Source: a virus (taxonomy: Duplodnaviria > Heunggongvirae > Uroviricota > Caudoviricetes). Taken from it: a DNA stretch of 40,283 nucleotides. The DNA lies in IMG/VR virus record IMGVR_UViG_2909309443_000006, positions 1 to 40,283 of that record; one strand, written 5' to 3'. The notes beneath the pieces were generated by a model. It did not search any database. It had not been told where the DNA came from and saw only the letters and a program-made list of their open reading frames with translations. The position numbers were made by a program, and so were the translations under genes. This document shows positions 4,512-27,623 of this stretch, piece by piece (within the stretch, counting starts at the first letter, position 1; each line of letters begins with the position of its first letter).

Positions 4512-7500
4512 TCAGCTAATCGTGATGCCTGTAGTGGCTTTCTTCATCACCACAACCAGCAAATCGCTGATACTTGCTGTGGGATACCAGTTATTTACCA
4601 GCCATGCTGACACCGAAAACTCCAGTGTCATGTGACCGTGACCGGCAGGCATATCAATAACGCCACTGTAAATCAGCGTATTATCCAGCGCGGTACGGTT
4701 ATAAATTTCAGCACCGTTTTTCCGCACTATCAGACGGCATGAGGAGTAAATATCAGTATGCTCTCTCTCATGCTTAGCGCCACTGAATGCCACCGCCGGA
4801 ATAACAATTTGCCGGTCAAACGGCTGATCGTCATAAACCCTGACGGTAATGGTCCCTGATGGCCACCGCTCCGGTGCACGGGAGTCCCGGGGGAAAGCTT
4901 TGCCCACTGTTTTAACGAGATCGCCTTCAATCTGGTTCGCGGACAGTTTTCCCAGAACCCGGCAGTTCTCGTTAATCGTGACGTTGTTGAGCGTCCCGGA
5001 GTTCGCATTCACACTGCCACTGATATCCGCATTTTTAGCGGTCAGCTTTCCGTCCGGTGTCAGGGAAAATGCCGGAGGATTACCGCCGCTGGTAATGGTG
5101 GGAGCCGTCAGATATTTCAGGAACACTTCGTTCATGAATATCTGATCGCCCTGACCAACAAACATCGGCTTTGTGTTGCCATTCGCAGGATTAATCATCG
5201 CAATCCTGTCTGCCGCCAGCAGCACCTGACTCTGCATGCCTGCTGGCGTATTCTCAATACCGGCACCGATACCCGCGATATAAAGGCGTCCGTCCTGCAT
5301 CTGCTGCAGCTTCACAGCCCACATGCTGTTCAGGTTATTATTTGTATCAACCTGAACCTTCTGTATCTGCTGGATCGCTGCACTCTGGTCTTCCAGTTTC
5401 TTATTGACGGTCTGTGTGATTTCATTGCTGACATCCGTAATGGATGTCCTGATTTCAGCCAGGTCAGGCGCAAGCTGACCGTTATCAATCTGCGTCCACA
5501 GCTCCTGAGCCAGATGGGTTTTCCCTATCTCGCCTTTGAAAAAATCCAGATAGCCGGATGCGTCATCACTCGGCTGACCAACAGCCTCCACGAATGCCGA
5601 TTTGCCAACGGTGTTCACACTGCGAACGTAAAAATAATAATTATGGCCCGGCCTGATATTGATACTGGCGGCTATCCAGTACAGCGCCGTGCCAAGATAG
5701 CGTGCTGTGGTTTCAACCTGCCTGATATCCGCAATCCGCTTTTCCGAGAACCAGAACTCAAACTGTACCGTCGGATCATAAACCGCAAGATGCGGCGTGG
5801 CGGTTATCTGAAAATAGCCCGGCGTCAGCTTAATCCGCGACGGTGCTGCCGGTGCGGCAATCCGGAACGATACCGATGCCGGATCGCCCTGCTGTCCCCA
5901 CGCATTTACCGCCCGGACTGTCAGCCTGTAATTTCCCAGCGCCAGTTGCGTGAAGCGGTATGTGGTTTCCGTCGTCCTGGCTGTGCTGACCAGCCGCTCA
6001 CTGCCGTCATCCGCTGTCACGGTCAGACGGAGCAGGAAACTCACGCCCTTCACCACCTTCGGCGTGTCCCAGCGGGCCAGTACCTGATACTCCCCGCTGT
6101 CTGCGGTGACTTCGGCAGTCAGGTGCTGCACTGCTGGCGGCGTGACACCATTCACCGTGCCGCTCTGGTCGCCGTCAAAGTGCGCCCCGTTATCCACGAT
6201 GGCTTCTTTTTCCGGTACATGCTGCACGGCGGTGATGGCATACGTGCCGTCGTCGTTCTCACGGATACTCACGCAGCGGAACAGGCGCTGGCGCAGCGTC
6301 GGCAGCTTCAGCCCCCATACGCTGTATCCGGCAACGCCGTCAGGAACACGGCTCACTTTTACCTTCACTCCGTCGGTGACGGACTGGACCTCCACGCTGA
6401 CCGGATTGCCACTTCCGTCAACCAGGCTTATCAGCGTGGTACCGGAGGATGGCAGCGTGATTTCACGGTCGAGCGTCAGCGTCCGGGTCTGGCTGTTCAC
6501 CGCCAGCACGCGCCCGCCGGTGCTGATCCCCGCATAGTCATCATCGCAGATTTCAATGACATCGCCCGGCACATGGAGAAGCCCTTCCGCACCCACGCTG
6601 AAGTCCACGGTCTGCGTTTCCAGTAGTTCCGTTTTAATCAGCCACAGCCCGGCGCGGTGCGCCTGCCCCCGGCTGGTACAGCCAAAAGCATCCATCTTCG
6701 TGACGTTACGACCGTAACGGGCAATGGCCTGCGTGTCCTCCACAAGCTCTGTCGCCGTCTCCCAGCCGTTATTCGGGTCAATCCAGTTCACCTCAACGGC
6801 ATTATGGCGGTCCTTCAGGGCGCTGAAGCTGTAGCGGAACGGCGCACCATCATCCGGCATCACCACATTACTGCGGTTATAGGTCCACACCTTATCCGAC
6901 GGTCGGTCCTGCACGAACGTCAGCGTCTGCCCGTTCCATACCGGCATACAGCGCATCGCCGAGCAGAAATCACTGAGAACATCCCACGCCTTGCGCTGTG
7001 TGGTCAGCCAGGCATTACAGGTGATGCGCGGCTCCGTGCCACCAAAGCCATCCGGCACCGACTGGTCGCAATTCTGGCCGATGACATACAGCGCCCATTT
7101 GTCCACATCCGCCGCACCGAGACGCTTCCCCATGCCGTAGCGCGGATGGGTCAGCATATCCCACAGACACCAGGCCATGTTGTTGCTGTATGCCGGTTTA
7201 AACGTTCCGTCCCAGATACCGCTGTATTGCCGCGTCTGCGGGTTATAATTCGACGGCACCTGCAGAATACGCCCGCGCAGATGATAATTACGGCTCACCT
7301 GCTGGCTGCCGAACTGCTCCGAGTCCACCTGCACGCCGACCAGTGCCGTGTTCGGGTAGCACTGTTTCACATCGATGATTTCGGTGTATGACGACCAGAG
7401 CGTTTTGTTCTGCAGCTGGTCTGTGGTGCTGTCCGGCGTCATCCTGCGCATCCGGATACTGAACGGGCGCGGCGGCAGGTTATCCACCACCACCGAGGCC

Positions 7501-7991
7501 AGATACTGTGAGGTGGTTTTTCCCTTAATGGTGATGTCTTTTTCCGTCACCCAGCCACCGTTACGTTGTATCTGAACCAGCAGGCGGACTTCCGACGGAT
7601 TCCGGTCCCCCTTTGAGGTGGTTTCCACCAGTGCCTGCACGCCGAAAGTAAAACGCAGACGGTCAATGTTTGCCGACGTAATGGTGCGGGTGATCGGCGT
7701 GTCGTACTTCACTTCCGTACCCAGTACCGTCTCGGAGCCGGAGGATTCAAATCCCTCCGGCGGAGTCTGCTCCTGCTCACCGGCCCGGAACACCACCGTG
7801 ACGCCGGATATATTGGTATTCCCCTCACTGTCCAGCACCGGCGTACTGTTCAGCAGCACGCTTTTTAATCCATCCACCGGACCTTCAATCGGCCCTTCGC
7901 TGATGGCATCAATCACACTCAACAGCTGCGTGGATTTCAGGTTATCTTTCGCTTCGCGCGGGGTATGCCCCTTACTGCTGCCTTTACCCAT
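4512..7991 (-). CDS. J: Tail tip host-specificity protein J
   Basis: 1159 aa; N-terminus [37 protein letters not shown] is lambda J-like; position after I. Confidence 0.95.
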
Positions 7992-8051
7992 TCGTCATGC
8001 TCCATAAACGACAAAACCGCCCGGAGGCGGTTTCACATAAAACATTTTGCA

Positions 8052-8693
8052 TCAGCGACCAATCACCACAACCTGACCACCATCCCCTTCGTCTGCCGTG
8101 CTGATCTCCTGAGAAACCACGCGTGACCCCACGCGCATTTCACCGTACAGAACAGGCAGAACATTGCCCTGGGCAACCATGTTATCCAGTGAAGAAAAAT
8201 AGGTGTTCTGTTTGCCGTTATCCGTTGTCTGTGTGCGGGGGGTTTTGGGTTTAGGGGCCAGCATCTGTGCAACACCGCCAAGCGTCATACTGGCACCGAG
8301 AGAAAACAGCAGATTACTCGCCATAATTCCTACCCCCGGCATCCATATAGCAACCGCCATAACAGCCGCCCCCAGCACAGCCTGAAACACACCGCCACTT
8401 TTGGCTCCTGCCAGACGCGGCACGATATGGATCACAGCACCATTTGCCAGCGGTTCATTAAGACGGGCTGATAATTCCGTTTCACCTGTATCACGCCCGG
8501 CAATGCGTACCTGATACCAGCCGTCGCTCAGCTTCTGACGAAACGCCGGGATCTGCATGGCCAGCGCCCGGATGGCTTCGGCCCCCGTTTTCACACGCAG
8601 ATCGATGCGGCGGCCAAATCGTTGTAAATCCCCGTAAAGGCAGATACGTGCCATGCCTGGTGACGCCAGAGGGAGTGTGTGCGTCGCTGCCAT
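8052..8693 (-). CDS. I: Tail assembly protein I
   Basis: MAATHTLPLASPGMARICLYGDLQRFGRRIDLRVKTG matches lambda I; C-terminus VVSQEISTADEGDGGQVVVIGR. Confidence 0.9.
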   Translation of the reverse strand: MAATHTLPLASPGMARICLYGDLQRFGRRIDLRVKTGAEAIRALAMQIPAFRQKLSDGWYQVRIAGRDTGETELSARLNEPLANGAVIHIVPRLAGAKSGGVFQAVLGAAVMAVAIWMPGVGIMASNLLFSLGASMTLGGVAQMLAPKPKTPRTQTTDNGKQNTYFSSLDNMVAQGNVLPVLYGEMRVGSRVVSQEISTADEGDGGQVVVIGR

Positions 8694-9334
8694 TTGTCGG
8701 TATACCTCTCTCGTTTGCTCAGTTGTTCAGGAATATGGTGCAGCAGCTCGCCGTCACCACAGTAAATGGCGGCATGATTCGGCACCGATGAACCAAAACA
8801 GCACAGCAGCACATCGCCCGGCTGCGCCGCTGACAACGGCACCTGATACAGCCCTGTGGCCTCCAGATTATCCAGATAGAGATTCTGACCGTGACGCCAC
8901 CAGTCATCCCCGCGATGAAAATCCGGCATCTCAATCCCCGCCAGATGATAAGCATCCCGGAACAGCGTGTAACAGTCCGTCACCCCGTGCTCAAAGCGCC
9001 GCCCGGTAAGATGCGGCACACTGCGGAATTTATGAATCTCACCCCGACAGACCAGCCACCAGGGCAAATCGCTCTGCACCTGCAGCCGCCTGTCAGCCTC
9101 ACTCAGCCAGGGCAGACCACCGGGGTGGCTGTGGACCAGCGCCACAATCTCACCCTGCATCTCTGCCCGCAGCCAGTCCTCCGGCGACATCCGGAAATAC
9201 GCCTCCGGCTCACCGGAGATATTCACGCAGGGAAAATATCTTTCCCCCTCCGGCGTTCTCACCACGAAGCCGCACGATTCCGCTGGCGCACATCGCCGGG
9301 CGTGCGCCAGAATCGCTGATTCTGTCTGTGTCAT
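8591..9334 (-). CDS. K: Tail tip assembly protein K (MPN/JAMM + NlpC/P60 domains)
   Basis: MTQTESAILAHARRCAPAESCGFVV start (ATG at 9334, directly after L stop); HSHPGG motif; overlaps I as in lambda. Confidence 0.85.
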   Translation of the reverse strand: MTQTESAILAHARRCAPAESCGFVVRTPEGERYFPCVNISGEPEAYFRMSPEDWLRAEMQGEIVALVHSHPGGLPWLSEADRRLQVQSDLPWWLVCRGEIHKFRSVPHLTGRRFEHGVTDCYTLFRDAYHLAGIEMPDFHRGDDWWRHGQNLYLDNLEATGLYQVPLSAAQPGDVLLCCFGSSVPNHAAIYCGDGELLHHIPEQLSKRERYTDKWQRRTHSLWRHQAWHVSAFTGIYNDLAAASICV

Positions 9335-9338
9335 GGGA

Positions 9339-10037
9339 TTACTGCGAAAGTTTGTTAATGGAAAGGAAGCCGCCAAAGTTGCCGACGTTATTGCGAAACT
9401 TACAACCACTCAGGCATTTGCTGCATTTATCCTTCGTGATATCGGACGTCGGCTGGTCATATTCATCAGCGACAGCCGGACCGTGATAACCGCACTCATC
9501 GCCGCGATAGGTCCAGGTGCAGGTGTTGGCCAGCATGATGCGCCCCGGAAAAACAGCACCATCCGTTTCCGTCGGTGTGGAGAGCACAAAGGAGGCACTG
9601 ACCGCACTCAGTTCGCTACACTGCTCGATGCGCCAGCGGCTGATCACCTCCTGCTCCGGATCGGCGTCGCTGTTTCCGTTGACGAAGTTCACCGCATCCA
9701 GAAAGCGGGCGTAAACCTTACGCCTGACCACCGTTCCGCCGACCAGACTCTGCAGGTCTTCCGCCATCCCGGTGACCATGCCGTGCAGGTTAGAGACCGT
9801 CAGTGTCGGACGGGCAGCACTGCCCTTACCGTTCAGTTCAAATCCCGTCCCCTGAATGGGGTATGCCTGATACTGCCGCCCCTGCCAGGTGACCGGCTCA
9901 CCTTTTTCGTTCTGCTCATTACAGAAAAAATAACGTTCACCACCGACCTCTGTCAGATCGATTTCCCAGAGCACCACTTGGGCTGACTGAGTAAGGCGTG
10001 TCGTCTCATGATGTGTTTCCTGTGGAATATCCTGCAT
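9339..10037 (-). CDS. L: Minor tail protein L
   Basis: 232 aa lambda L-like ORF with C-terminal Cys cluster; synteny M-L-K-I-J. Confidence 0.9.
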   Translation of the reverse strand: MQDIPQETHHETTRLTQSAQVVLWEIDLTEVGGERYFFCNEQNEKGEPVTWQGRQYQAYPIQGTGFELNGKGSAARPTLTVSNLHGMVTGMAEDLQSLVGGTVVRRKVYARFLDAVNFVNGNSDADPEQEVISRWRIEQCSELSAVSASFVLSTPTETDGAVFPGRIMLANTCTWTYRGDECGYHGPAVADEYDQPTSDITKDKCSKCLSGCKFRNNVGNFGGFLSINKLSQ

Positions 10038-10046
10038 CAGGGCCTC

Positions 10047-10376
10047 CTATGCCACGACCTGTTCAAAATCTGCCGTTATGGTTACCCACAGCGCCCCCAC
10101 GCTTGCCGACCATTTACGACAAACCACCGTGATCGGCTTCCAGTCATAAGGTGGCGTCCACTGAAATGCGCGGACGCCACCGTGCCGTTCCAGAAAGGCT
10201 TTCAAAGATGGGTGTTCACATTTACGAACACGTATCGTCACGCTGTAAGTCGACAACTGGTTATTCAGTCCCGCCGCACGACGCTGTTCATAACCATCGC
10301 CCAGCTTCACTGTCACCACTTTCGGCTCTGATACCACATTCATATCCGGGCGCACTTTCCAGTGAAACGTCTCCAT
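10047..10376 (-). CDS. M: Minor tail protein M
   Basis: 109 aa lambda M-like ORF; start overlaps the tape-measure stop. Confidence 0.9.
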   Translation of the reverse strand: METFHWKVRPDMNVVSEPKVVTVKLGDGYEQRRAAGLNNQLSTYSVTIRVRKCEHPSLKAFLERHGGVRAFQWTPPYDWKPITVVCRKWSASVGALWVTITADFEQVVA

Positions 10377-12820
10377 TACCGATATGCTCCACTTAACCGA
10401 CCACCATCACGGGCCTGCTGTTGCATAAAGTCCGCTGCTGCTTTTTTCCCGAGGTCATAAACCACCTTCAGGGCAGCCGGACCTATCTGCCCGTTCGTAC
10501 CATCGTTATTGATCTCGATGTTGTACTGCGGGGCAAACATCACCATACCTGAACCACCAATATCCGCCACAACACCCAGCTTGCCATCAGCACCACGACG
10601 CAATGGCAGAATGGCTTCAGACCCCGCTTCTCCCATCACACCCGCGCCTTTTGCAAAAGCAAAAAACGTCGGACGGTTAACCACCGTGCCACTGTAGCGA
10701 CTCAAATCAGCAGACTGATAAACACCGCCATCCGCATTTGGCGTCACACTGGCAGCTGCTGCACTCCCCCAGCCAAACGCCGAACCAATCCCCTTCACCG
10801 CCTGCATCATGGCCATCTGCGACATGATTTTTGCCAGATCAGAAAGGAGCGAGGCGGTAAAAGATTTGAAGTTCAGTTTTCCGGTGGTGCAGAACGTCGC
10901 CAGTGCATTACCTGCGCTGTTAAATGCCGCTGTAAACATCTGCTCAGCGGTACCTGCCGCGTTATCCGCACTCTCTGTAAAATTCTGAAACGCCCGCATG
11001 GCACCGTTTTTCCAGTCTGCCTGCATCAGTTCCTGCTCCTGCCAGTAATGTCTGTTTTCGTTCAGTTGCCGGTTAAGACTGTCTGTCAGCATCTGCTCAG
11101 CATCCCGGTATTCATCTGAGCCGTATGTTCCTTTCTGTTTACTGTCACGCTCCAGTTGCTCCATTTGCTGCTGATATTTCTGTTGCAGACTGAACTGTGT
11201 CTGGTACCGCTGACGCTGTTTATCCCCCATCCCTGTTGTGGCGATATCCAGGTCATGTTGCTGACGCAGAGCCCGTTCCTCTTCCGCCAGCTGGCTGGCA
11301 AGCTGAATGGATTTTTTCTTCAGGTCATTCAGCGCCGTCTGCTTCTGCAGCTCCTGCTGTTTTGTATCCAGCAGCGTCAGTGCCTGAATCAACTCATCCT
11401 TATGCGCCAGCACGCTTTTTTCATCTGCTGTCAGCTTTTTACCCGCCAGATCACTGATACGCTGCTGCAGGGCCAGAAGCTGCTTATGCGCCTCTGTCAT
11501 TTTTTCCGTGGTCAGTCCCGCGGACTGTCTGGCGGCGGCAATCTGCCCCTCCACCTGCGCCTGCTGCTGACTGTACTGCAACAGCAACCGGGTGGCTTCA
11601 TCATTGCGGTTTTCAGATGTTTTTTTCTTAATGGCTTTTTTGTAACGTTCATTTTCACGCTGTATCGCTGCGTCCCTGACCGCCTGGTCGGCATACTGCA
11701 TGGCATTGATGCGCGCAATTTCACGTTGATGTCGCGCCGCCTCCGTTTCATTCATCCGGTTCAGCGCAGCATTTTCAGCATTCCGGCGTTTCTGCTGTTC
11801 CTGATAATTTCGTTCAGCCTGCGCTTTTGCATCCTGTAAATCTTTCTGGCGCTTTTTCTCCTGAAGTTCATCAAGGCGCTGCTGGTCGTATTCCACTGTG
11901 GTGGATGCATTTGTCCAGGGCGATTTTTTCGCACGCTGAATTTTTTCCTGCAGCGCCGCAATCTGCGCATCAAGGGAATCATTACGCCCGATATTCATGG
12001 CGGCATCCCAGAACTGCTTCCACCAGTCAGATAAGGTTTGCAGCGTACTGCCCAGCGCATTGAGATTATTATCAATATCAGATGTGCGTTTACCGGTTTC
12101 CTCTGCCAGCGCTGACATGGCGATCCGGGCAGCATCACTGGCACGCCCCTGTTCCCCGAGAACACGGACTTGTTCAAGCTGGGTGGCAGTCAGGAAATGC
12201 AGTTCATTATCCAGCGTCCTGGCTGCATTTACCGGATCATCCTTCAGTCGCTTAAACTGACTTATGGTGTCGCTGACAGACTGCCCCACTGAACGTTCCA
12301 TTTGCGCGGCAGCTTTCGCCACCATGGCGATATCACCTCCACGAAATGCACCACTCCCCACCACCTGAGCCAGCGCACCGGCTGCAGCATGTTGCGTGAT
12401 ACCATTCCCGGAAATAGCACGACTGAGCACCCACAGCTGCCCGGCAGTGACTCCGGCATAATGCCCCGTCAGCGACAGCTGGCGGTTAAATTCTTCCCCC
12501 TCCTTCTGACCGTCATACCAGGCTTTACCCAGACCATAGACGGCCGCGGCAATACCGCCAATAACCCCGCCAAGCATCATGCCTTTCGGTGACATCAGTG
12601 TGTCTATCCATCCGGCACGGTTAGCCAGCGTTATCCCGGATCCCCTCAGCGCCCCTAAATTGCCGCGGGCCAGTTCACCTATCAGAACGCCTATCTCCTG
12701 GCGGGCTGCTGCACTTTTCAGACCCAGCGAATGCGTGGCTTTTCCTGCCCGCTCCATTTTGCGGATATACACTTCTGCAGCACCGCTTACCCCCAGCTGG
12801 GCTGCCCTGGCGCGAAGCAA
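10376..12820 (-). CDS. H: Tail tape measure protein H, apparently 5'-truncated (no ATG or SD at ORF start)
   Basis: C-terminus INNDGTNGQIGPAALKVVYDLGKK...RDGGRLSGAYR matches lambda H; coiled-coil Q/E/R-rich middle; ORF opens with TTG about 48 residues into the lambda H alignment, with an in-frame stop 13 codons upstream. Confidence 0.8.
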   Translation of the reverse strand: MLRARAAQLGVSGAAEVYIRKMERAGKATHSLGLKSAAARQEIGVLIGELARGNLGALRGSGITLANRAGWIDTLMSPKGMMLGGVIGGIAAAVYGLGKAWYDGQKEGEEFNRQLSLTGHYAGVTAGQLWVLSRAISGNGITQHAAAGALAQVVGSGAFRGGDIAMVAKAAAQMERSVGQSVSDTISQFKRLKDDPVNAARTLDNELHFLTATQLEQVRVLGEQGRASDAARIAMSALAEETGKRTSDIDNNLNALGSTLQTLSDWWKQFWDAAMNIGRNDSLDAQIAALQEKIQRAKKSPWTNASTTVEYDQQRLDELQEKKRQKDLQDAKAQAERNYQEQQKRRNAENAALNRMNETEAARHQREIARINAMQYADQAVRDAAIQRENERYKKAIKKKTSENRNDEATRLLLQYSQQQAQVEGQIAAARQSAGLTTEKMTEAHKQLLALQQRISDLAGKKLTADEKSVLAHKDELIQALTLLDTKQQELQKQTALNDLKKKSIQLASQLAEEERALRQQHDLDIATTGMGDKQRQRYQTQFSLQQKYQQQMEQLERDSKQKGTYGSDEYRDAEQMLTDSLNRQLNENRHYWQEQELMQADWKNGAMRAFQNFTESADNAAGTAEQMFTAAFNSAGNALATFCTTGKLNFKSFTASLLSDLAKIMSQMAMMQAVKGIGSAFGWGSAAAASVTPNADGGVYQSADLSRYSGTVVNRPTFFAFAKGAGVMGEAGSEAILPLRRGADGKLGVVADIGGSGMVMFAPQYNIEINNDGTNGQIGPAALKVVYDLGKKAAADFMQQQARDGGRLSGAYR

Positions 12821-14415
12821 CTCAGAAGATGAAAGATTCTGGCGGGTTGGCGGGCTTTATCCAGCGATGCCACGTCCATTGCAGCGCTCTCCAGTACGTT
12901 TGCATGTTTCGCTTTATCGAACAGACTTACATTATCTGTGGAGATTTTCGGGTTAGACGTCAGAATGGCATAAACCAGATCGGCAATAGTGGATTTCGCC
13001 GCACGGCCCAGTTTCATCGGGACATCGGTCAGCATATTCAGATCATCATTGATAATGGCCTGACGGGTGATACTGAACAGCTCGCCATAGGTCGCCAGTG
13101 CAATAGTGGCCTGTTTATCTCCGGTGGTGACGTATTTATATTCCGCCCCTTCACGCACCTGACGCAGAGCACTGAAGCCACCCATACCCACACGATGGGC
13201 AATTTTAAAATCAGACAACTGACCTTTCCGCGTCCACTGTTCATAGGTTTCAGGGGCATCTTCCCAGCCCTGCAGAATGGCTTTGTTCGCAACATCCAGC
13301 AGAATATTACCGAAGTCAGACGTACTGTGTGTGAACGCCGCACCGACCATCTGCATCGGGTTATAACTGGAAACCCCAATACCCCGTTCAGTCAGTGACA
13401 TACGGGCATATTCACGCAGGGTCATCCCGTTGTAGACATTATCACGTTCGGTTTTTTCAAATCCGGCACGCGCCATCAGCGCCTGGCGGATCCCGTCCCC
13501 CACAAAATTACCGTTACCGGCATAAATATGAGCCGGGGTATTTTTATTGGATGGCGTGGACTCGCGCCCCATCTCGTTCAACAGCTTTTCACGGGCCTGC
13601 TCCAGCGAACATTCAGGATCGGCAAGACACTGAGCCTGCAGCGTCTGATAACGCCCGCCAAACATGGCAAACAGATCATTAATACCGTTTACACGCGCTT
13701 TTTGCTCTGCCAGTACCTGCGCACGGATGCTGTTTTCATCCACCACGGGTGCTGCTGCCTGCACTGGCGTCCGGGAGGCTTCAGGTTCATTATCCTGTAC
13801 GCGTGGAGCACTGTTGCGTGGCGGAGTAATCATGTTTCGAATGGATTCCGGCATCTTTTTAAATTCCTCTGTACGTTTTGACTGAATACATGCCATTGCC
13901 TTAACGGCTGGCGTTACCTGATCAGCAAATCCATGTGCCAGGCATTCGGCACCGGACATCCAGGTCTCATCCGCCAGCATGGCAGCAATTTCATCGGTGG
14001 TTTTCCCGGTTTTCTGTGCATAAGCGGGTAACAGAACCGCCTCAACTTTATCGAGCAGGTCGGCATAGGTGCGCATGTCCTCCGCATCACCGCCCGTAAA
14101 GCCAAATGGTTTATGAATCATCATGAAGGTGTTTTCCGGCATAATGACCGGGTTTCCCACCATCGCAATGACCGACGCCATTGACGCCGCCACACCGTCG
14201 ACATAAACGGTAATGGACGCACCATGTGTTTTCAGTGCATTAAAAATGGCGATGCCTTCAAAGACATCGCCACCCGGTGAATTAATATGGAGATTAATGT
14301 GGGTGATATCGCCCAGTGCATTCAGATCACTGATAAACTGCTTCGCTGTAACACCCCAGAAACCAATCTCGTCATAAATATAAATATCCGCGTCACTCTG
14401 GTGACCAGCCTGCAT
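12787..14415 (-). CDS. Prohead protease (ClpP/S14-like) - scaffold - major capsid fusion protein, likely 3'-truncated at a deletion junction
   Basis: ClpP-like N-terminal region (DIYIYDEIGFWG...HINSPGGDVFEG...MASVIAMVG); capsid-like C-terminal region; ATG at 14415 just after portal stop; runs 34 bp into the H reading frame. Confidence 0.6.
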   Translation of the reverse strand: MQAGHQSDADIYIYDEIGFWGVTAKQFISDLNALGDITHINLHINSPGGDVFEGIAIFNALKTHGASITVYVDGVAASMASVIAMVGNPVIMPENTFMMIHKPFGFTGGDAEDMRTYADLLDKVEAVLLPAYAQKTGKTTDEIAAMLADETWMSGAECLAHGFADQVTPAVKAMACIQSKRTEEFKKMPESIRNMITPPRNSAPRVQDNEPEASRTPVQAAAPVVDENSIRAQVLAEQKARVNGINDLFAMFGGRYQTLQAQCLADPECSLEQAREKLLNEMGRESTPSNKNTPAHIYAGNGNFVGDGIRQALMARAGFEKTERDNVYNGMTLREYARMSLTERGIGVSSYNPMQMVGAAFTHSTSDFGNILLDVANKAILQGWEDAPETYEQWTRKGQLSDFKIAHRVGMGGFSALRQVREGAEYKYVTTGDKQATIALATYGELFSITRQAIINDDLNMLTDVPMKLGRAAKSTIADLVYAILTSNPKISTDNVSLFDKAKHANVLESAAMDVASLDKARQPARIFHLLSCFAPGQPSWG

Positions 14416-14428
14416 CCTGAACCAGGAA

Positions 14429-15857
14429 TTATTCTTCGGACTGGTCGTCGGTGTGCTGCGGCTCCTGTCGTTTCGTTGCGGCACTGCTGCCTCCTTTATC
14501 ACTGGCCGGATCGGTATCAAATACCAGATCCAGTTTGCGGTTTTCATCAATTTCGGCCTTGCGCCGACGTTTGACATCATCCGGATTACGACCACCAGCA
14601 CGTACCCAGTCTGATTCTGTCGCCGCTCCACCACGAATCTGGATTTTCCAGGCCTCAGCCTCCTTAACAGGGTCAATCCACGGCATCACCGGTCCGGAAT
14701 ACACCGCGGTATACAGTGAAGAACGGTCAAGATCGCGGGGTAGCCTGATAACACCGGATGCCACAGCCTGTTTCAGCCAGGCACGATACATCGGACGGGT
14801 GACGGCACCAATAAACCAGTCCTGCAGGATCAGGTAGCCATCAGTGGATTCAACCAGCTCCTGACGCTGGGCGCTGTAAGTGCCGTTATAGTTGCGCGCT
14901 GTACTGGAAAAACTCAGACGACTGCCCGCCGCCACGGCACGCAACTGACCATTACGAAAAGTTTCAAGGTTAGGATTGGGGCGATCCGACTTCACCATTC
15001 CGATTTCTTCGCCGGGTTTCAGATCATCGTAAATAATGCCTGGCTGAATGGTAAGCTCGCGTTCCTTATCCTTGCTGCCATTACCATCCGCTTCATAGCT
15101 CTGCCCGTCGCCTTTCCGGATGTACATCCCCAGAGCAGCGGCGATCCTTGCTGCAGTCAGCTCAGAATCTTCATACTCTTTCAGAGCACTGAGGCGGATC
15201 AGCACACCGGACAATAAAGACGTCCCGCGCATCTGGTGCAGACGGCGAACAAATTTAAGATGCAGCATTCGCTCTGCATCCACTTCTTTGGTTTCCATCT
15301 GCCGTCCGGATACGGGACGGCTTTTATACACCAGATATTTTTCGGGACGCCTCCAGCCAGAAATGAACACCGGCAGAAGGCGTCAGGCTGTTTATGCGCC
15401 CGGAAACCATCTGGGCAAACACCTCACCATCGCGCAGCCAGGTACGCAGCATCAGACGTTCCAGCATCGGACGGGTAAACTGCCCGGTGACTTCCGGGCT
15501 GACAGACCATTCACTCCATCGGGTGCGAATCTCCGCAGCCAGATCACGGGCAATGGCCCCATTGCGTAATACCGGATGTGGCTCGACAATAATCCCGTTT
15601 TTCCCCACCACCCGTTCTTCCAGCTTGTCAAATACACCAATGACCAGATCGTGGTTGTTATCAAGGTAACGGGCCTGCTCACGTAACGACACGGCCCCGT
15701 ACTGGCTTAACTGGTCGGCAGTTCGGTTTTCCCGCCGGGCTTTGTGTGTCCGCGTCGTTTTTACGGCCTCATAAGCCTGGATCACCGCCCGGGAACGCAG
15801 CCTTGCCGCTTTCCATCCTGGTGAAAAAACGCCAATCACATCATCAAGAATTGCCAT
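14429..15857 (-). pseudogene. Portal protein, disrupted by a +1 frameshift in an A5 run (plus-strand T-run 15338-15342)
   Basis: Two overlapping ORFs (15324..15929 and 14429..15370) read as one portal if one A is removed; start ATG at 15857 overlaps the upstream stop (TGATG). Confidence 0.75.
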
Positions 15858-16075
15858 CAGAACCTCGCCAGCCGGTACCCGGGATGCCCCCGTCGTCGTG
15901 TAATCAGAGCCGCAAGGCGGCGCTCCCACTCCTGCCGTCCCTGCCGGATCTCAGATAAGTTTTCCATGGTCATCTGCTGACCATTAAAGGTGACGGATTT
16001 TCCGTCCAGCACCGCCATTTCAGCTTCCGTATAACGCTGAATCATGGCTTCGATATCATTCTGGTTCATAACCAT
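15857..16075 (-). CDS. Head-tail joining protein, gpW-like
   Basis: About 70 aa ORF between terminase large subunit and portal, the lambda W position; start may be the ATG at 16069 (ATGA overlap with terminase stop). Confidence 0.55.
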   Translation of the reverse strand: MVMNQNDIEAMIQRYTEAEMAVLDGKSVTFNGQQMTMENLSEIRQGRQEWERRLAALITRRRGHPGYRLARF

Positions 16076-18168
16076 CCTCCGGAAGTCAGCCAGGGGTTAA
16101 CATCGTCAGTTACTGTTTTCTTCCGTTTTTGTTTTTTAACAGGCGTGGATACCGGTTCCGGTGAGGGTGACGGTTCGGTACTGTCCGGGACACACTCCAG
16201 CCAGGTTTCCCGGCTCGCCCACTCCGGTGCATCCGGCCAGCGGATCTTTTCGTATCCATGCAGAATGACCAGAGCCTCGGCATACACCATCAGGTCAAAA
16301 GCTTCGTTGGCACCGCGACCCGGCTTACTCCATTTCCCGTCACTGCTCCGCTCTTCATACGTCAGTTCGTCGTAAAACCAGCTCCCCAGCCAGTCAGGGA
16401 AATGCACATAGCCGGGACCTGGCGAGTCACGCCATAACGCGTTATTCACCCGGTCTTTCAGGGCATCCGTCTGAAGAAGCCAGAGCGGCACATCACCTGC
16501 GGCCTGCGCCCGGCGGCCCGTTCGTCCGGTGTTATCAGGGAATGTACGGCTGATCAGTTTTGCGCGCCGGATGCTGTCACCCTTAAACAGGTAAATACGT
16601 TTACCAAGGCCATCACGACGGCAACGACGCCAGAATTTATAGGCATTATCAGTGACCCCGTCTTCACCGCCGGAGTCCACCGCCATTGCCATCAGTCGCA
16701 TTTGTTGAGAAGGATCGGAGGCCAGCGGCCAGCTTTTATGAAAAACATCCGTCAGCAGGACATCCCAGTCTTCCGGGTAGCTGGCCGGATCAATTCGCTG
16801 GCTCTCCCCGTCGCTGTCACCGCGCAATGACTGCGTGATGTTGTAACGATCAATAATCCAGCGTTCGCCACGGCTGCCATAGCCCGTTACCTGAACCACA
16901 AAACGGCGATGACGTCCCGCCTGCACATCCACTGTCGCCACAAGGAAATTAACGCCATCCGGCACACTGCGGGAAAGAACTGGCTCTGCCCGCTGCTCAA
17001 GCAGTTCACTTTTTCGTTGCTCCATGCTGGCACGGGGAAGATAAGGTAATCCCCAGTCGGTATTGATAACCGTCTTGAGTGTTTCTTCACTTCCGGTTGT
17101 CTCGTATTCCTGTTCTGCAGTAAGCAGTTTGTAAACGAGTTGCGAGAGTGTCTGGTAAGCAGCTGCCGGACCCTCCATCCAGAATGACGCAATACGTGAG
17201 CGTCGGGGATCACCATAACGACTGCCATCCGCATTGATGGATTCACCATCCCGCAACCAGACCCCACGTCCGTTCAGCTCACGTTTTTGTTCAGGCATAA
17301 TCCGTCCTGAACAGGAAGGACACTGAATATAAGCCGCCTCACTTGCCAGCACGGGATCGGCAATATCACGGAAACCAGCAACCACATCGCCGCAGGGCTG
17401 AAAATACTCACCACAGTGTGGACAGGGCCAGTACCAGCGACGGCGATCACCACGGTTATAGAGCGACAGGATCCCCGTGGTTGGTGGAGCCTCATGCGGT
17501 GAAGTCCGTCGCCATTTCACATCCTTCACATCCCTGCCGGGGGAACTCTCCACCAGCGTCATACCACTGGACATAAATGTTGTGGTACGTTTTGAGGCAA
17601 GAGAGAAAGCATCCCCCTCGCCATCAATATCTTCCGGAAAACGGTCATAATCCGTCAGCGCGACGCATTTATAATCTGATGAGGACATGATATTGACTGA
17701 CGGCCAGCCGATTTTCAGGTAGTTACCAGCAAGGAATGTTCTGTCATAAACGTTGTTGTCATTTTTGTTCGGACTCAGGCGACTGACCACTTCCGGGCTG
17801 ACGCGAAACGTTCTGGCAAGTCGTTTTTTGGAGTGTTCGCGGGCTTTTTCCTCCGTCATCTGAATGATCAGCATATCCGCAGGATCGCAAATCACGTTGT
17901 AAATCACCCAGCCGTCAATCAGGCCGATAGTCTTGCCGGTTCGTGCCGGGCCAACAAATATCACTGCGTCGTATTCACGCGAGGCCAGGCAGTTCATCGG
18001 CTCAATAACATACGGTGCCACCAGCGGATCCCACGGGACTGAGTTCCCGGCCCCCATGGGCACCCGCATATATTGAGCAACGGCATCAGCAACCTGCATT
18101 CGTCTCGGTGCGCGAAGGATATAACCTGAATCGGTTCGTGCTGCCTTTGCGGTTTCCTGATTCAGCAT
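16066..18168 (-). CDS. Terminase large subunit (lambda A-like)
   Basis: 700 aa; Walker A-like VGPARTGKT; Zn-ribbon-like CPHCG...CPSC; position after small subunit. Confidence 0.85.
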   Translation of the reverse strand: MLNQETAKAARTDSGYILRAPRRMQVADAVAQYMRVPMGAGNSVPWDPLVAPYVIEPMNCLASREYDAVIFVGPARTGKTIGLIDGWVIYNVICDPADMLIIQMTEEKAREHSKKRLARTFRVSPEVVSRLSPNKNDNNVYDRTFLAGNYLKIGWPSVNIMSSSDYKCVALTDYDRFPEDIDGEGDAFSLASKRTTTFMSSGMTLVESSPGRDVKDVKWRRTSPHEAPPTTGILSLYNRGDRRRWYWPCPHCGEYFQPCGDVVAGFRDIADPVLASEAAYIQCPSCSGRIMPEQKRELNGRGVWLRDGESINADGSRYGDPRRSRIASFWMEGPAAAYQTLSQLVYKLLTAEQEYETTGSEETLKTVINTDWGLPYLPRASMEQRKSELLEQRAEPVLSRSVPDGVNFLVATVDVQAGRHRRFVVQVTGYGSRGERWIIDRYNITQSLRGDSDGESQRIDPASYPEDWDVLLTDVFHKSWPLASDPSQQMRLMAMAVDSGGEDGVTDNAYKFWRRCRRDGLGKRIYLFKGDSIRRAKLISRTFPDNTGRTGRRAQAAGDVPLWLLQTDALKDRVNNALWRDSPGPGYVHFPDWLGSWFYDELTYEERSSDGKWSKPGRGANEAFDLMVYAEALVILHGYEKIRWPDAPEWASRETWLECVPDSTEPSPSPEPVSTPVKKQKRKKTVTDDVNPWLTSGGWL

Positions 18169-18662
18169 TACTCCTCCTGCTGTAATTCCTCCTCATCATC
18201 CGCACCTGCTTCGGTCACCCGCAGGGCTATCTGATCGCGCAGATCATCAATAATGGACTGAACACGGCTCACAGCGGCAGGCTGCAGACCGCAGTCACGT
18301 TCAAGAATATCCGGTAATGTCTCCAGCACCTGCACGACCGCTTTTGCCCAGATGGCAAACTCCCGTCTGACATCACTGGCCGGAATGAGTTGCGCCGTTT
18401 CCTGTTCGAACTTAAGACGCTCACGTTCAGACTGATACCAGGCTTTGCGCTCATGCGCATCCATTTCGCCTTCTGCAACCGGCGGTGGTAATGCCAGAAA
18501 TGCCGACACAATATCAACCACCCGATAAAGCTTGAGGTTGCTTTCATGCCCCCCTGCAACGGGTAGATTTTGCAGCCTTGCCGCAGCAGTCTGGCGATGT
18601 ACACCTGACAATGCCGCCAGTTGACTGATATTCAGCGTCAGATTTTTTAACTCTCGATCCAT
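18168..18662 (-). CDS. Terminase small subunit (Nu1-like)
   Basis: 164 aa with N-terminal HTH-like LNISQLAALSGVHRQTAAARL and acidic C-terminus; immediately upstream of terminase large subunit. Confidence 0.6.
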   Translation of the reverse strand: MDRELKNLTLNISQLAALSGVHRQTAAARLQNLPVAGGHESNLKLYRVVDIVSAFLALPPPVAEGEMDAHERKAWYQSERERLKFEQETAQLIPASDVRREFAIWAKAVVQVLETLPDILERDCGLQPAAVSRVQSIIDDLRDQIALRVTEAGADDEEELQQEE

Positions 18663-21501: not shown

Positions 21502-21576
<75 letters not shown>

Positions 21577-21579
21577 ATA

Positions 21580-21655
<76 letters not shown>

Positions 21656-21657
21656 AC

Positions 21658-21734
21658 TGGCCCGCCACCGAGGACTCGAACCTCGCACACTCAACTTAAA
21701 GGGTTGACGCTCTTTCCTGATGAACTGGTGACGG
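21658..21734 (-). tRNA. tRNA-like gene with non-canonical anticodon loop (CCUUUAA, C at position 33); possibly degenerate tRNA-Lys
   Basis: 77 nt cloverleaf foldable (acceptor with one G-U, T-stem CGAGG/CCUCG, T-loop UUCGAGU, CCA encoded) but position 8 is C and U33 is replaced by C. Confidence 0.45.
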
Positions 21735-21735
21735 T

Positions 21736-21811
21736 TGGTGGCCCTTGCTGGATTTGAACCAGCGACCTGGCGATTATGAGTCGCTCGCTCTCACCACTGA
21801 GCTAAAGGGCC
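21736..21811 (-). tRNA. tRNA with CAU anticodon, ileX/ileZ-like (tRNA-Ile2; Met not excluded)
   Basis: 76 nt; GGCCCUUUAGCUCAGUGGUGAGAGC...CUCAUAA...GGUUCAAAUCC...CCA; resembles E. coli ileX as remembered. Confidence 0.8.
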
Positions 21812-21860: not shown

Positions 21861-22910
21861 TCAAACGATTAAATCCTGAACTTCCCTGACTGTCTGTTCA
21901 AAACGTCCTGTCTCCAGCTCAACACCAATCGCACAACGCCCCAGTGCCATCGCCGCTTTTACCGTTGAACCTGAACCCATAAAAAAATCTGCAACCAGGT
22001 CTCCCGGACGACTGCTCGCGTTGATTATCTGCTGCAGCATTTCTGCCGGTTTTTCGCACGGATGTTTCCCTGGATAGTACTGCACCGGTTTATGCGTCCA
22101 GACATCGGTGTACGGAACCTGCGCCGTCACACCGAAATACCGCCGCAAATTTTTATATTCACTCAGCAATTCCGTATACTGCCGGTTCAGCTCACTGTAT
22201 GTGCTGACCAGCTGGTGGTGTGGTTTTTCCAGTTCCCCGCGCTGATGTTTTTCTGCCGCAACACGCGCAAACAACGCCTGCAATTTGTTGTAATCACCCT
22301 CGTTCGGTAACTGCCACTGACTGGTACCAAACCAGTGCGAAGCCATGTTTTTCTTTCCGGTGGCTTCCGCTATCTGTTTTGACGTTATTCCCAGTGATTT
22401 ACGCGCATCACGAAAGTAAGAAATCAGCGGGGCCATGACGTGCTGTTTTAGCTCGCGCCCCTGTGCCACATAGCCATCATCTTTCGGGCGATACGGTCCC
22501 TGATAATGTTCTGCAAACAGAATGCGCTCTGTTGCCGGAAAATACGCCCGCAGACTTTCCTTATTGCACCCGTTCCAGCGTCCGGACGGCTTCGCCCAGA
22601 TAATGTGGTTCAGCACATTAAAGCGCTCACGCATCATGATTTCGGTGTCAGATGCCAGGCGATGACCACAGAACAGGTAAAGACTTCCGGCAGGCTTCAG
22701 TACCCGCCAGAACTGCGCCAGACACTGGTCCAGCCATTTCAGGTAATCATCGTCGCCCTCCCACTGGTTATCCCAGCCCTCGGGCTTCACTTTAAAGTAT
22801 GGCGGGTCTGTGACTATCAGATCGACAGAGTTTTCCGGTAAGGTCTGGATAAATTTCAGGCAATCAGCGTTGATTAACTCACAACTGGATATTTTTACAG
22901 TATTAGTCAT
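21861..22910 (-). CDS. Orphan DNA methyltransferase (beta-class N6A/N4C amino-MTase)
   Basis: 349 aa; DPPY motif (LIVTDPPYF) near N-terminus and AdoMet-binding FMGSGST near C-terminus; no adjacent restriction gene. Confidence 0.8.
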   Translation of the reverse strand: MTNTVKISSCELINADCLKFIQTLPENSVDLIVTDPPYFKVKPEGWDNQWEGDDDYLKWLDQCLAQFWRVLKPAGSLYLFCGHRLASDTEIMMRERFNVLNHIIWAKPSGRWNGCNKESLRAYFPATERILFAEHYQGPYRPKDDGYVAQGRELKQHVMAPLISYFRDARKSLGITSKQIAEATGKKNMASHWFGTSQWQLPNEGDYNKLQALFARVAAEKHQRGELEKPHHQLVSTYSELNRQYTELLSEYKNLRRYFGVTAQVPYTDVWTHKPVQYYPGKHPCEKPAEMLQQIINASSRPGDLVADFFMGSGSTVKAAMALGRCAIGVELETGRFEQTVREVQDLIV

Positions 22911-23060
22911 AGATCAATAAGCACTTCTCTGATAGGCTCATACTGCTTTTGCGCAAAGCAGATGGGCCTGAGGTTTGCTTGTGACCCCAACGCATGAGCA
23001 GATGGCTGGCAGGTGCCGCTAACACCCACCAGCCGCCCATTACCACAAATTAAAAAGCCT

Positions 23061-23258
23061 TCACTGCAGAAGGCGTCTGTAACAACCGAACTGATAATCT
23101 GCCAGACCCGCCATAACAAGCTGGGTCAGGATTAACTGGCAGCGTTCGCGTGAAAGGTAAGTATTCTGCGCAATTTCCCCGACGGTCGCCGGTTCGGTGA
23201 CGCTTAATTCATTAAACACCACTCTGGCGGTTTCGGTCATATCCTGCTGTTTTAGCAT
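23061..23258 (-). CDS. Small putative DNA-binding (winged-helix-like) protein
   Basis: 65 aa from ATG at 23258; segment TVGEIAQNTYLSRERCQLILTQLVMAGL looks HTH-like; start uncertain (ORF track extends to a GTG at 23345). Confidence 0.4.
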   Translation of the reverse strand: MLKQQDMTETARVVFNELSVTEPATVGEIAQNTYLSRERCQLILTQLVMAGLADYQFGCYRRLLQ

Positions 23259-23477
23259 GTCTTTTTCCCTTTTCTGGTTAACGTGACATACCAATAACTC
23301 TTGTCTAAAAAGCCAGCAAGCTGAAAGACCGGTATTCGCAACCACCAGCGCGTTTAACGTACTGCATCAATTTTCGAGCATAAAAAGACCGCCTGAGGGC
23401 AGCCTTTTTACATTAAAATTAAGTTTTCTTTAACTATGTTGTATGTGAAATTAGCATTCCCTACTGAGTTTATACAA

Positions 23478-24221
23478 CTAATCTGACGTCACACGCACCA
23501 TTATACTTACTAAAGAAAAGTCATCATCAGGTCCGGCTCTCTCTATACGACGCAAAATGCCATTAGAAAACTTCTGACTATTACTCATCGTATTTGATGT
23601 AAATCTGGGGCGTTTTTCCCAAACGTTATGAACCCCATCAGACATGATACACAGATGATATACCCCGTTAATACTAGGTAAATCTTTCCATGTGATAAAA
23701 TCACAGTCGTATTCCATATCAACATTTGAGGCTATAGCCGTCGTTAAGATATTTTTGCCCGGTTTATCCTTCAAATCTCTGGGTTTAAAAATATTCTGAT
23801 CAATTAGCATCTGATGCCTGGTATCGTCCTTCGTCAATTGGTATGCTTTCTTCTCTCCAATGCAATACAAACGACAATCACCAATATGACCAATAATAAT
23901 TCCGCTATCACAAACATAACAAAACGTAAGTGTAGTAGCAGCTTTATCGAACTCATCATTAACATCAGCTAACGACATAACCTTTCGCTTAACTTCATCA
24001 AATACATCCGGAACTGTGTCAAAAGATAAGCTTGTCAATGCTGAAAGTTCAGCAATTGCCATTGATGAAGCCTGACTGGCACCAGTGTATGAACCTACAC
24101 CATCAGCTACGGCAAATAAGATGCCATCCCCTACAATTTTGGGAGGAAGCAATGAATCTTCGTTGACCCTACCTGGTTCTTTTGGATACGAGAATGATGA
24201 AGTCGCTATCAGCTGAATCAT
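23478..24221 (-). CDS. PP2C-family (PPM) Ser/Thr protein phosphatase
   Basis: 247 aa; motifs NEDS, FAVADGVGS, GHIGDCR, MSDGV, acidic C-terminal DDDFSLVSIM; AAGGAG SD; start ATG overlaps kinase stop (ATGA at 24218-24221). Confidence 0.8.
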   Translation of the reverse strand: MIQLIATSSFSYPKEPGRVNEDSLLPPKIVGDGILFAVADGVGSYTGASQASSMAIAELSALTSLSFDTVPDVFDEVKRKVMSLADVNDEFDKAATTLTFCYVCDSGIIIGHIGDCRLYCIGEKKAYQLTKDDTRHQMLIDQNIFKPRDLKDKPGKNILTTAIASNVDMEYDCDFITWKDLPSINGVYHLCIMSDGVHNVWEKRPRFTSNTMSNSQKFSNGILRRIERAGPDDDFSLVSIMVRVTSD

Positions 24222-24982
24222 GACTCACTCCTTAAAAAAGAATGCACAAAATCAAACGCCACATCATCTATTGTCTGATATCTATCATCTTTATCCATCC
24301 TGGTACACTTCGCTATGATAGGCTTTATTTTTTTATCATCTAAATTTAAGTCCTCAATTAACCGCCCCACCGCATAAACATCAGTCTTAACTGAATACTC
24401 GGCATTATATAAAATCTCGGGAGCCATATATCTTGTACTTCCCATACGGGTACCGATCTCGGTCAATTTAGTGGTATCCCCTTCGGGATTTGTATCTTTT
24501 ACCAGACCAAAATCAGACACCTTGTATGTTCCGTCGCTAAATCGCAAGACATTAAATGGTTTTATATCTCTGTGTAAATAGCCTTTCGCATGGATGTGAG
24601 CTACACCATCTAATACCATTTTCACTATTGAAATTTTTTGATCTGTTGTAAGAAGGTTGTTCGTTATTTCGTGCTCAAGATCACATTCTGCTTTATCCAT
24701 AATGAACCATGGATTCTCGGCAAACAAATCGCACAAATAAATAGGAACAATATTGCTATGTACGCAATGTGATTGATACACGACCTCCCTTTTAAAACGC
24801 CTTCTAAACTGCTCTATTTGCGCCAAAAGCTCTGGTTTTTCGGGGGCTAAAACCTTTCTAGCATAATCCCCACATTCACCCTTGTTGAGGTTGTAAACCT
24901 TAACGTGTTCAACAAAGCCAAATGCACCCCTTCCAATCAACTGAATTCGTTTTATAAAGTAATTACCGTGCTGTTCTTCCAT
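24218..24982 (-). CDS. Hanks-type (eukaryotic-like) Ser/Thr protein kinase
   Basis: 254 aa from ATG at 24982; Gly-loop GRGAFGFV, Lys in YARKVL, catalytic loop HRDIKPFN, DFG (VSDFGL), APE (YMAPE). Confidence 0.85.
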   Translation of the reverse strand: MEEQHGNYFIKRIQLIGRGAFGFVEHVKVYNLNKGECGDYARKVLAPEKPELLAQIEQFRRRFKREVVYQSHCVHSNIVPIYLCDLFAENPWFIMDKAECDLEHEITNNLLTTDQKISIVKMVLDGVAHIHAKGYLHRDIKPFNVLRFSDGTYKVSDFGLVKDTNPEGDTTKLTEIGTRMGSTRYMAPEILYNAEYSVKTDVYAVGRLIEDLNLDDKKIKPIIAKCTRMDKDDRYQTIDDVAFDFVHSFLRSES

Positions 24983-25054
24983 TAAGCTCACCGACCTAAA
25001 TTGTAAGAATATCCATATCTTACAACTACAGATAAAAAGGTCCACAGAGTTAAG

Positions 25055-25078
25055 CAAAAAACCCGCATTTAAGCGGGT
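25055..25078 (-). terminator. Intrinsic terminator immediately downstream of the Q-like gene (tR'-like)
   Basis: Hairpin ACCCGC-ATTTAA-GCGGGT followed by T6 on the minus strand, about 50 nt after the Q-like stop. Confidence 0.55.
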
Positions 25079-26184: not shown

Positions 26185-27306
26185 TTACCCAAGCACGCCA
26201 GTTGCAAAGGCGTGATCAAGAAAACGAAAAATTAAATCAACCTGAGAACCATGCTTTTCTTCGAACGCCAGCGGATCCGCATGAAGCTCGTTGTGATGCC
26301 CCCGACACAGCGGTAGCGTGAAAATATCGTGAGATTTTGTCCCCATTCCGCCCTGACCATGACCAATCAGGTGATGGGGATCGTCGGCTGGCTTACCACA
26401 ACACGCACACGGCTGTGTCTTCACCCAGCGTGTGTATTTCTCGTTAACCCAGCGGCGACGTTTAGGTCGTTTCATGAAAGATTCCGGAGACTCAGGATCA
26501 ACGGCAATGCTGACCACCGTCTTTTCCTGTGGTGGGTTCTGTTGCTGGTGGGCGTGAGGCAGCGGCGCAAGATTTTTTGTGCGCTGCTTCAGCATGCTGG
26601 TGGCGGTCTGCTCTCCCGGCACGATGTCGCTCTCGCGGTATACTGAGCGAATTTTTTCCGCACGTAACCCCAGAGAACGACGTAATGCTGCCTCTGGTAG
26701 CGCGTCCGCCACCTGATTGCAGACCGCCCACCAGGATAATTCAGCCAGCGATAATTCCCGCTCCTGCGTGCCATTCATTGCGTGGCGGATGACATCAATC
26801 ATCCATGCTGACAGGTTTTGGTGAGCAAGCTGCCCGAGTGATTCAGAAGTCTGGTCACGCAGCTGGTTGTCGCAGTACCAGCACAACACCATTGCGCCAG
26901 TACCATAACGGTGAATAACGGTTTCACTGTGATGATAGTCACCATGAGGCCACTGGCAGGATTTAACGTGGCGTAACAGCCAGTCAGACAATGCACCAGC
27001 ACCACCAGCAGCACGAATCACCCGCTCATCGCTGAAAAATGGCAGTAATGATTTATCCTCCGCCAGCGGCTGGCGAACAGCAGGAACGACTCCGGACGGC
27101 AGACCATGCATGCTTTTCGGTTCCGGCTCCACCAGAACTCGAGGGTTATGAAATACCTGCATGGATTCACGGCCCGGTTTTAGCACCACCAGCCCAAGTT
27201 CCGGTACCGGAACAGGTCGAAGTAATACCCGCACGTTACCTCCAGATGCGTTGCTGGAATGTGCGGGACGGACGCGGTGGGCGTTCGGAATAAGGGAGCC
27301 TGACAT
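26185..27306 (-). CDS. DUF968-like nin-region protein with C-terminal HNH-like Cys/His motif
   Basis: 373 aa ORF; C-terminus TQPCACCGKPADDPHHLIGHG...CRGHHNELH; true start uncertain (several in-frame Met). Confidence 0.55.
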   Translation of the reverse strand: MSGSLIPNAHRVRPAHSSNASGGNVRVLLRPVPVPELGLVVLKPGRESMQVFHNPRVLVEPEPKSMHGLPSGVVPAVRQPLAEDKSLLPFFSDERVIRAAGGAGALSDWLLRHVKSCQWPHGDYHHSETVIHRYGTGAMVLCWYCDNQLRDQTSESLGQLAHQNLSAWMIDVIRHAMNGTQERELSLAELSWWAVCNQVADALPEAALRRSLGLRAEKIRSVYRESDIVPGEQTATSMLKQRTKNLAPLPHAHQQQNPPQEKTVVSIAVDPESPESFMKRPKRRRWVNEKYTRWVKTQPCACCGKPADDPHHLIGHGQGGMGTKSHDIFTLPLCRGHHNELHADPLAFEEKHGSQVDLIFRFLDHAFATGVLG

Positions 27307-27508: not shown

Positions 27509-27582
27509 CGGTTGTCTCTGCTGGCGCAGCAGGTGCCAGTTGTTCAGGCTGGCGTGCGAATTGTAAACCAGAATGCCAGGAA

Positions 27583-27609
27583 AAAACAAAACCCGCCGAA
27601 GCGGGTTTT
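27583..27609. terminator. Intrinsic terminator downstream of the Doc-family gene
   Basis: Hairpin AAACCCGC-CGAA-GCGGGTTT with T-runs on both strands. Confidence 0.55.
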
Positions 27610-27623
27610 CATTGGAAGCACCT

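Follow-up and report, generated by a model that had tools for sequence, protein, structure and literature searches.

The 40,283-nucleotide stretch of DNA analyzed here (the window; IMG/VR record IMGVR_UViG_2909309443_000006) is a lambdoid prophage of the Escherichia coli chromosome CP024266.1, and within its late operon a truncated protease/capsid gene is joined directly to a truncated tape-measure gene. In our reading, to which we give a probability of roughly 0.92, a single intramolecular deletion of 4,173 bp that did not depend on homology (an illegitimate event) left this junction as its scar. The chimeric capsid product of 565 amino acids (aa) is encoded on only one public contig, CP024266.1 (assembly GCA_002741515.1), a closed chromosome of 4.88 Mb, and the locus there is 100% identical to window positions 2787-24484. 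The late genes, including all of those at the capsid/tape-measure junction, lie on the minus strand.

The sequence-only reading of this DNA had proposed that one deletion removed the 3' end of the capsid gene, the tail-shaft module and the start of the tape-measure (H-like) gene, and that alignment to an intact related prophage would map the breakpoint. The window was therefore compared by BLASTN and base-level three-way alignment with such a relative, locus L001 of E. coli E200086. One clean gap of 4,173 bp with collinear flanks was observed: the left flank ends at L001 position 7231, the right flank resumes at 11403, and L001 7232-11404 is the part deleted. Immediately to the left, on the capsid side, the window is 99.3% identical to L001; the value is 95% immediately to the right, on the tape-measure side, and again 98-99% over most of M and L. 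At the protein level, identity to the L001 counterparts is 97-100% for terminase, portal, capsid, M, L and K. Since the backbone is collinear on both sides, one intramolecular deletion explains the gap most economically. The proposed deletion did take all three parts, although the loss from the tape-measure gene is much larger than the 40-50 codons first suggested (see below). The join falls at 12848-12849 (minus strand), where the dinucleotide CA (12849-12848) is common to both parents, so that the suggested search for microhomology returned a match of 2 bp. Sequence at and above 12850 is capsid-derived and sequence at and below 12847 is tape-measure-derived, and capsid matches of 100% identity in many genomes stop exactly at 12848. 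The window reads GATAAAGCCCGCCAACCCGCCAGAATC across the junction.

On the capsid side, translation, Pfam and tblastn identify a truncated fusion of a ClpP-like prohead protease and a major capsid protein at 12787-14484 (minus strand). Homology supports GTG 14484, which follows AAAGGAGG, as its start, and the product then has 565 aa; the 543-aa protein described earlier corresponds to the reading from ATG 14415 (542 aa). Capsid codons 547-675, the last 129, are deleted. The product thus consists of native residues 1-546 followed by 19 foreign residues (PARIFHLLSCFAPGQPSWG), which are tape-measure DNA read in the wrong frame, and a TAA stop, compared with 675 aa in the intact protein. The CLP_protease domain (PF00574) is complete at residues 31-191 (E = 2e-36). 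The Phage_capsid_4 match (PF25209) covers profile positions 7-142 of 262 here, as against 7-261 in the intact relative, and together with the tblastn match to residues 1-546 of 675 this bears out the predicted C-terminal truncation. The capsid protein therefore lacks about half of its capsid domain: of the two parts of a functional protease/capsid protein, the N-terminal ClpP-type protease domain is present and a complete C-terminal capsid domain is not.

On the other side, tblastn and Pfam identify a remnant of the lambda H-like tape-measure gene at 10376-12849 (minus strand), comprising codons 199-1021 of a 1,021-codon gene. Capsid codon 546 is joined to tape-measure codon 199, and the fusion is out of frame. 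Intact relatives encode tape-measure proteins of 1,010-1,021 aa (1,021 in L001), and tblastn maps residues 199-1021 to the window, so that codons 1-198 are deleted. The remnant keeps the TMP_2, TMP_4 and Tape_meas_lam_C domains (E = 2e-48, 7e-18 and 6e-24), with TMP_2 beginning at residue 21 here versus residue 228 in the intact protein, and its 823 codons contain no internal stop. Like gpH of phage lambda (NP_040595), to which it is 26% identical over nearly its whole length, it has these three domains and ends with the same C-terminal motif. Unlike the 853-aa lambda protein, the intact ancestor type has 1,021 aa and a longer coiled-coil N-terminal part, and the window copy lacks residues 1-198. 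Residues 2-56 of the intact relative resemble lambda H 3-57, and about 170 extra residues precede TMP_2; the segment resembling lambda H 3-57 is found in the intact relative only, not in the window copy. The earlier placement of the first residues of the open reading frame (ORF) near lambda residue 50 is right only in lambda H numbering (by BLASTP, residue 82 matches lambda H 122, and residue 1 extrapolates to ~41). The resulting estimate of 40-50 lost codons is not, since the ancestor type has 1,021 aa and the real loss is 198 codons. Of the features of a functional gpH-like gene, the characteristic domains are present, and a complete N-terminus and a start of its own downstream of G and T are not.

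A separate feature of the tape-measure gene is a mosaic patch at about 11650-12250, 600-1,200 bp inside the remnant, where identity to L001 is 79-83% and that of the flanks is 93-98%. Over the full length of the remnant, identity to the E. coli genomes of the collection peaks at 95.1%. The genome at 95.1% (MB06234, locus L007) was considered as a closer parent for the tape-measure side and was set aside, as L001 is the more similar of the two at the junction itself.

The reading frames around the junction are as first described. The protease/capsid frame stops at TAA 12789-12787 and the H-like frame opens with TTG 12820, the two sharing 34 bp (12787-12820). The tape-measure frame is closed 13 codons upstream of this TTG by TAA 12859-12857 (minus strand), which, from sequence and translation, lies upstream of the junction within capsid-derived DNA read out of frame. 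No Shine-Dalgarno sequence precedes TTG 12820 (upstream sequence CCGCCAGAATCTTTCATCTTCTGAG), nor does one precede the start chosen by the gene caller, ATG 12757 (upstream sequence CTGCAGAAGTGTATATCCGCAAA). Both possible starts of the remnant, TTG 12820 (814 aa) and ATG 12757 (793 aa), are codons internal to the gene and lack a ribosome-binding site. The late promoter would still drive transcription through the junction, and translation of the remnant from the internal TTG or ATG would be weak at best. Nothing indicates a new function for the fusion.

The gap in the window corresponds to seven L001 genes, encoding a DUF2190 protein, an FII-like protein (annotated in L001 as 'DNA breaking-rejoining protein'), a Z-like tail protein, U (the tail terminator), a V-like tail tube protein, G and T. 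Relocation of these genes within the element was assessed by tblastn with the seven intact-relative proteins. None of the seven gave a match in the 40-kb window, the only part of the chromosome that was searched, in agreement with the original observation that the genes normally found between capsid and tape measure are absent. The element has thus lost its genes for head completion and head-tail joining and for the tail terminator, tail tube and tail chaperones.

The frequency of this arrangement was assessed with three kinds of query. A 10-kb query was covered to at least 80% in about 1,780 complete E. coli genomes and, among the matches listed, all of the best ones span about 14.2 kb, so that the window is short by about 4.2 kb. 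By the same coverage threshold, a 401-bp query centered on the junction was found in 0 of 5,426 complete E. coli genomes. Exact junction patterns of 51 and 27 nucleotides were absent from 185,579 GTDB species-representative genomes, and the 27-nucleotide pattern was also absent from the scanned metagenomes. Within these collections the junction is private to one strain. These counts bear on whether the arrangement could be native, that is, whether a functional phage lineage lacks the tail-shaft module and has a tape-measure gene that starts here. Related functional phages with such a capsid/H arrangement had been named as the observation that would overturn the deletion, and none was found among the 5,426 genomes, about 1,780 of which have the complete interval. 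The uninterrupted 814-codon open frame is all that favors a native arrangement. Against it stand the halved capsid domain, the lack of a ribosome-binding site for a tape-measure ORF whose starts are internal codons, the absence of any genome with the same arrangement and a frameshifted portal gene (see below). It was rejected on the junction search, the cut capsid domain and the tblastn results for the missing and truncated genes, and its probability is practically negligible.

The two breakpoint regions match locally over 9 bp at best, a length that shuffled controls also reach, and diagonals near the 4.1-4.2-kb offset between them show no enrichment. A repeat-mediated deletion was therefore rejected, as no local homology or cryptic diverged repeat connects the breakpoint regions. 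The lack of homology beyond 2 bp instead points to an illegitimate, microhomology-level event, in which two ends with only CA in common would have been joined. Beside both parental breakpoints lies the 8-mer CCCGCCAG (window 12840-12859), and both copies are kept in the window (AAAGCCCGCCA-ACCCGCCAG; also GCCCGCCA-ACCCGCCAG). A simple slipped-strand deletion between these copies was considered and discarded, since both survive.

The two flanks could in principle also have come from different elements, through illegitimate recombination between two co-resident lambdoid prophages or a larger chromosomal rearrangement. Such an exchange would agree with the lower identity to L001 beyond the junction (95%, from 99% on the capsid side) and with the 79-83% patch in the tape-measure gene, and it is common for one E. 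coli strain to have several lambdoid prophages that resemble each other (median 2 places per genome; PMC2669165). However, the terminase/portal/capsid side and the M/L/K side are both collinear with L001 and encode proteins 97-100% identical to its own, and the divergent patch lies inside the tape-measure gene, away from the junction, which is ordinary mosaicism. Moreover, an internal deletion needs one event, whereas a 2-bp join between prophages would invert or delete large chromosomal segments. We therefore regard an exchange of this kind as highly improbable and prefer the internal deletion.

Deletions in the same interval of other strains were identified with 4-kb and 6-kb queries, sized so that the flanks join into one match only where the interval is shortened. 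Five further strains, out of about 1,850 genomes with the module, have a deletion in the interval. In the fifth of these, O157:H7 strain DEC4E, an IS1203 transposase is annotated within the match, and breakpoints were mapped in the other four. In L001 coordinates, the deletion of the window runs from 7231 to 11403 (4,173 bp, capsid to tape measure), that of E166 (L002) from 7143 to 11243 (4,102 bp, capsid to tape measure), that of SWYH.B349aT (L008) from 6767 to 10926 (about 4,162 bp, capsid to tape measure), that of S115 from 9180 to 11380 (2,201 bp, U to tape measure) and that of MS10495 from 8347 to 12854 (4,513 bp, from after the FII-like gene to tape measure). The junction overlaps in these four strains are 2-7 bp, and in the NCBI annotation the fragments are pseudogenes marked 'partial in the middle of a contig'. 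As in the window, all four deletions (2.2-4.5 kb) end inside the tape-measure gene, and two of the four begin in the capsid gene. Unlike in a shared scar, all mapped breakpoints differ from those of the window and from each other, so that these are separate events. With five other strains among about 1,850, and all four mapped cases different, a common hotspot or a shared ancestral scar was rejected.

The three capsid-to-tape-measure deletions (window, E166 and SWYH.B349aT) have endpoints that differ by up to about 470 bp and lengths that differ by 71 bp, the endpoints shifting in parallel. In a naive simulation with uniform endpoints within the detection limits of the search, three of five sizes fell within 72 bp with P of about 0.005, a value that is post hoc, concerns three events and uses a crude null model. 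No repeat, homology or other sequence feature was found behind the shared size, and the equal lengths are probably a coincidence. That these deletions are non-random, through a distance-constrained mechanism or through selection for removing exactly the tail-shaft module, is very unlikely.

The capsid/tape-measure junction is one of three lesions in the window, all of them private to the strain. The portal gene (14429-15857, minus strand) is split by an 80-bp frameshifting deletion into fragments at 15857-15324 and 15370-14429, which match Pfam profile positions 3-127 and 159-354 of 354 and, by tblastn, residues 1-170 and 190-502. The junction of this deletion has a 4-bp microhomology, GGCG (15348-15351), inside a 10/12 imperfect direct repeat, and the closest E. 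coli portal matches (99.8%) all have the extra 80 bp. The integrase gene (39152-40283, plus strand) is split into two ORFs of 196 and 216 aa by one extra A at about 39697-39704, as determined by base-by-base comparison with E. coli 2014EL-1346-6, which has A7 where the window has A8, and by translation. The extra base may truly shift the frame, or it may be a homopolymer error from long-read sequencing. Taken together, the lesions look like progressive prophage decay.

The strain used for this comparison, E. coli O6:H16 2014EL-1346-6 (L005, NZ_CP024232.1), is a sister strain that carries the same prophage at ompW, with shared parts that are 99.95-100% identical. There the prophage has lost 15 kb between holin and J (window 20735 to 5736) and a further 1.08 kb between J and the tail fibre gene (window 4659 to 3582). 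The order of events cannot be read from this strain because the 15-kb deletion includes the capsid/tape-measure junction. The sister strain nevertheless has the same element at a later stage of decay and so shows that its erosion continues within the lineage. We infer that the 4,173-bp deletion is recent and strain-specific, because the junction and the lesions that accompany it are private and the 823-codon remnant is free of internal stops.

A junction found in a single genome could also arise during assembly, if the 4.2-kb segment were present in the strain and had been dropped from the long-read chromosome assembly. The chimeric protein occurs on one contig only in the public assembly collection, the junction was found nowhere else, and the integrase A8 frameshift resembles a long-read error, so that the assembly is perhaps not error-free. 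However, mis-joins arise at repeats and the breakpoint regions share nothing beyond 2 bp, CP024266.1 is a closed chromosome, and analogous deletions are found in a number of independent complete genomes, in the case of E166 in two separate assemblies. The sister strain has an even larger deletion in the same prophage. We therefore see only a slight chance that the junction is an artefact. Three points nevertheless weigh against a deletion as described here. The double 8-mer CCCGCCAG retained at the breakpoints does not fit simple slippage. The best relative on the tape-measure side is only 95% identical and includes the 79-83% mosaic patch, so that the length and content given for the deleted segment are estimates drawn from relatives. 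Finally, the junction is carried by one contig.

Outside the lesions, the window has a lambda-like organization, and its end coincides exactly with the end of the integrase gene. Along the minus strand, the integrase, excisionase and exonuclease genes are followed by a cI-like repressor gene and cro, the replication genes and the Q antiterminator gene. Next come genes for a Ser/Thr kinase, a PP2C phosphatase and a DNA methyltransferase, four tRNA genes, and the holins and endolysin. These are followed by DUF1441 (small-terminase-like) and large terminase, portal and the protease-capsid fusion, and then by tape measure, M, L, K, I and J, lom, tail fibre and tail-fibre assembly. DUF1441 and the large terminase gene (16066-18662, minus strand), upstream of the lesions, are intact, with full-length tblastn matches at 99.4% identity and the Pfam domains GpA_ATPase and GpA_nuclease. 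Downstream of the remnant, the distal tail genes M, L, K (a C40 peptidase), I and J (4512-10376, minus strand) are likewise intact, as judged by full-length tblastn matches for M, L, K and I and by gene calls and Pfam including J.

Several further genes were recorded in the remaining parts of the prophage. The DNA methyltransferase, PP2C phosphatase and Ser/Thr kinase genes lie at 21861-25057 (minus strand), after the Q antiterminator gene. Downstream of them, at 21502-21811 (minus strand), are the tRNA genes Met-CAT, two Lys-TTT and Gly-TCC, the last of which is about 465 bp from the holin gene. The sister-strain record annotates three tRNAs at the corresponding place (Ile, Lys and Gly). The early region at 26185-29443 (minus strand) corresponds to L005 16370-18659, where toxin genes of the hokD type and of the death-on-curing (Doc) family are annotated in the sister strain, along with a truncated DUF4406 pseudogene. 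These cargo and addiction-type genes of the early region might favor the keeping of a defective element.

The element would be unable to assemble heads, tails or virions by itself, because it is without the tail tube, tail terminator, tail chaperones and head-completion proteins, its portal gene is not intact, and half of the capsid domain has been lost along with the N-terminal fifth of the tape measure. The earlier proposal that the deletion leaves the prophage unable to build particles thus agrees with what its gene content implies, although the deletion is not the sole reason, since the 80-bp portal deletion and the integrase frameshift are also present. The regulatory, replication and lysis genes and terminase appear intact.

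Defective lambdoid prophages are familiar in E. coli, and the cryptic prophages of K-12 are among them. Deletions and frameshifts in morphogenesis genes are typical of E. coli lambdoid prophage pools, in which co-resident prophages can complement one another (PMC2669165). Like members of the Sp prophage pool of O157 Sakai (PMC2669165), the window prophage has a lambda-like gene order, portal, head and tail deletions together with frameshifts, and no particles expected unaided; for that pool and similar defective prophages, co-resident prophages may complement the defects in trans. Unlike in the Sakai Sp pool and the K-12 cryptic prophages, the junction described here is private to one strain. 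The window prophage still has its regulatory, replication, lysis, terminase and distal tail modules, which places it at an early-to-middle stage of decay, in contrast to the sister strain, which has already lost the holin-to-J region.

The junction is therefore the scar of an ordinary deletion that is private to this strain and belongs to the decay of its prophage; it is of an already known class and not a new system. Such scars are rare per genome, yet they are a recognized and ordinary class, and this one opens no new biological question. For annotation, both ORFs at the junction are pseudogene fragments, neither a novel pair of overlapping genes nor a short variant of the tape measure, and the prophage is to be scored as defective. 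If induced, the prophage could still harm the cell, and harm upon induction is a plausible pressure behind the holin-to-J deletion of the sister lineage. Together with that larger deletion, the scar provides a small, well-resolved snapshot of stepwise prophage decay in one E. coli lineage, as judged from the near-identical prophage shared with the O6:H16 strain.

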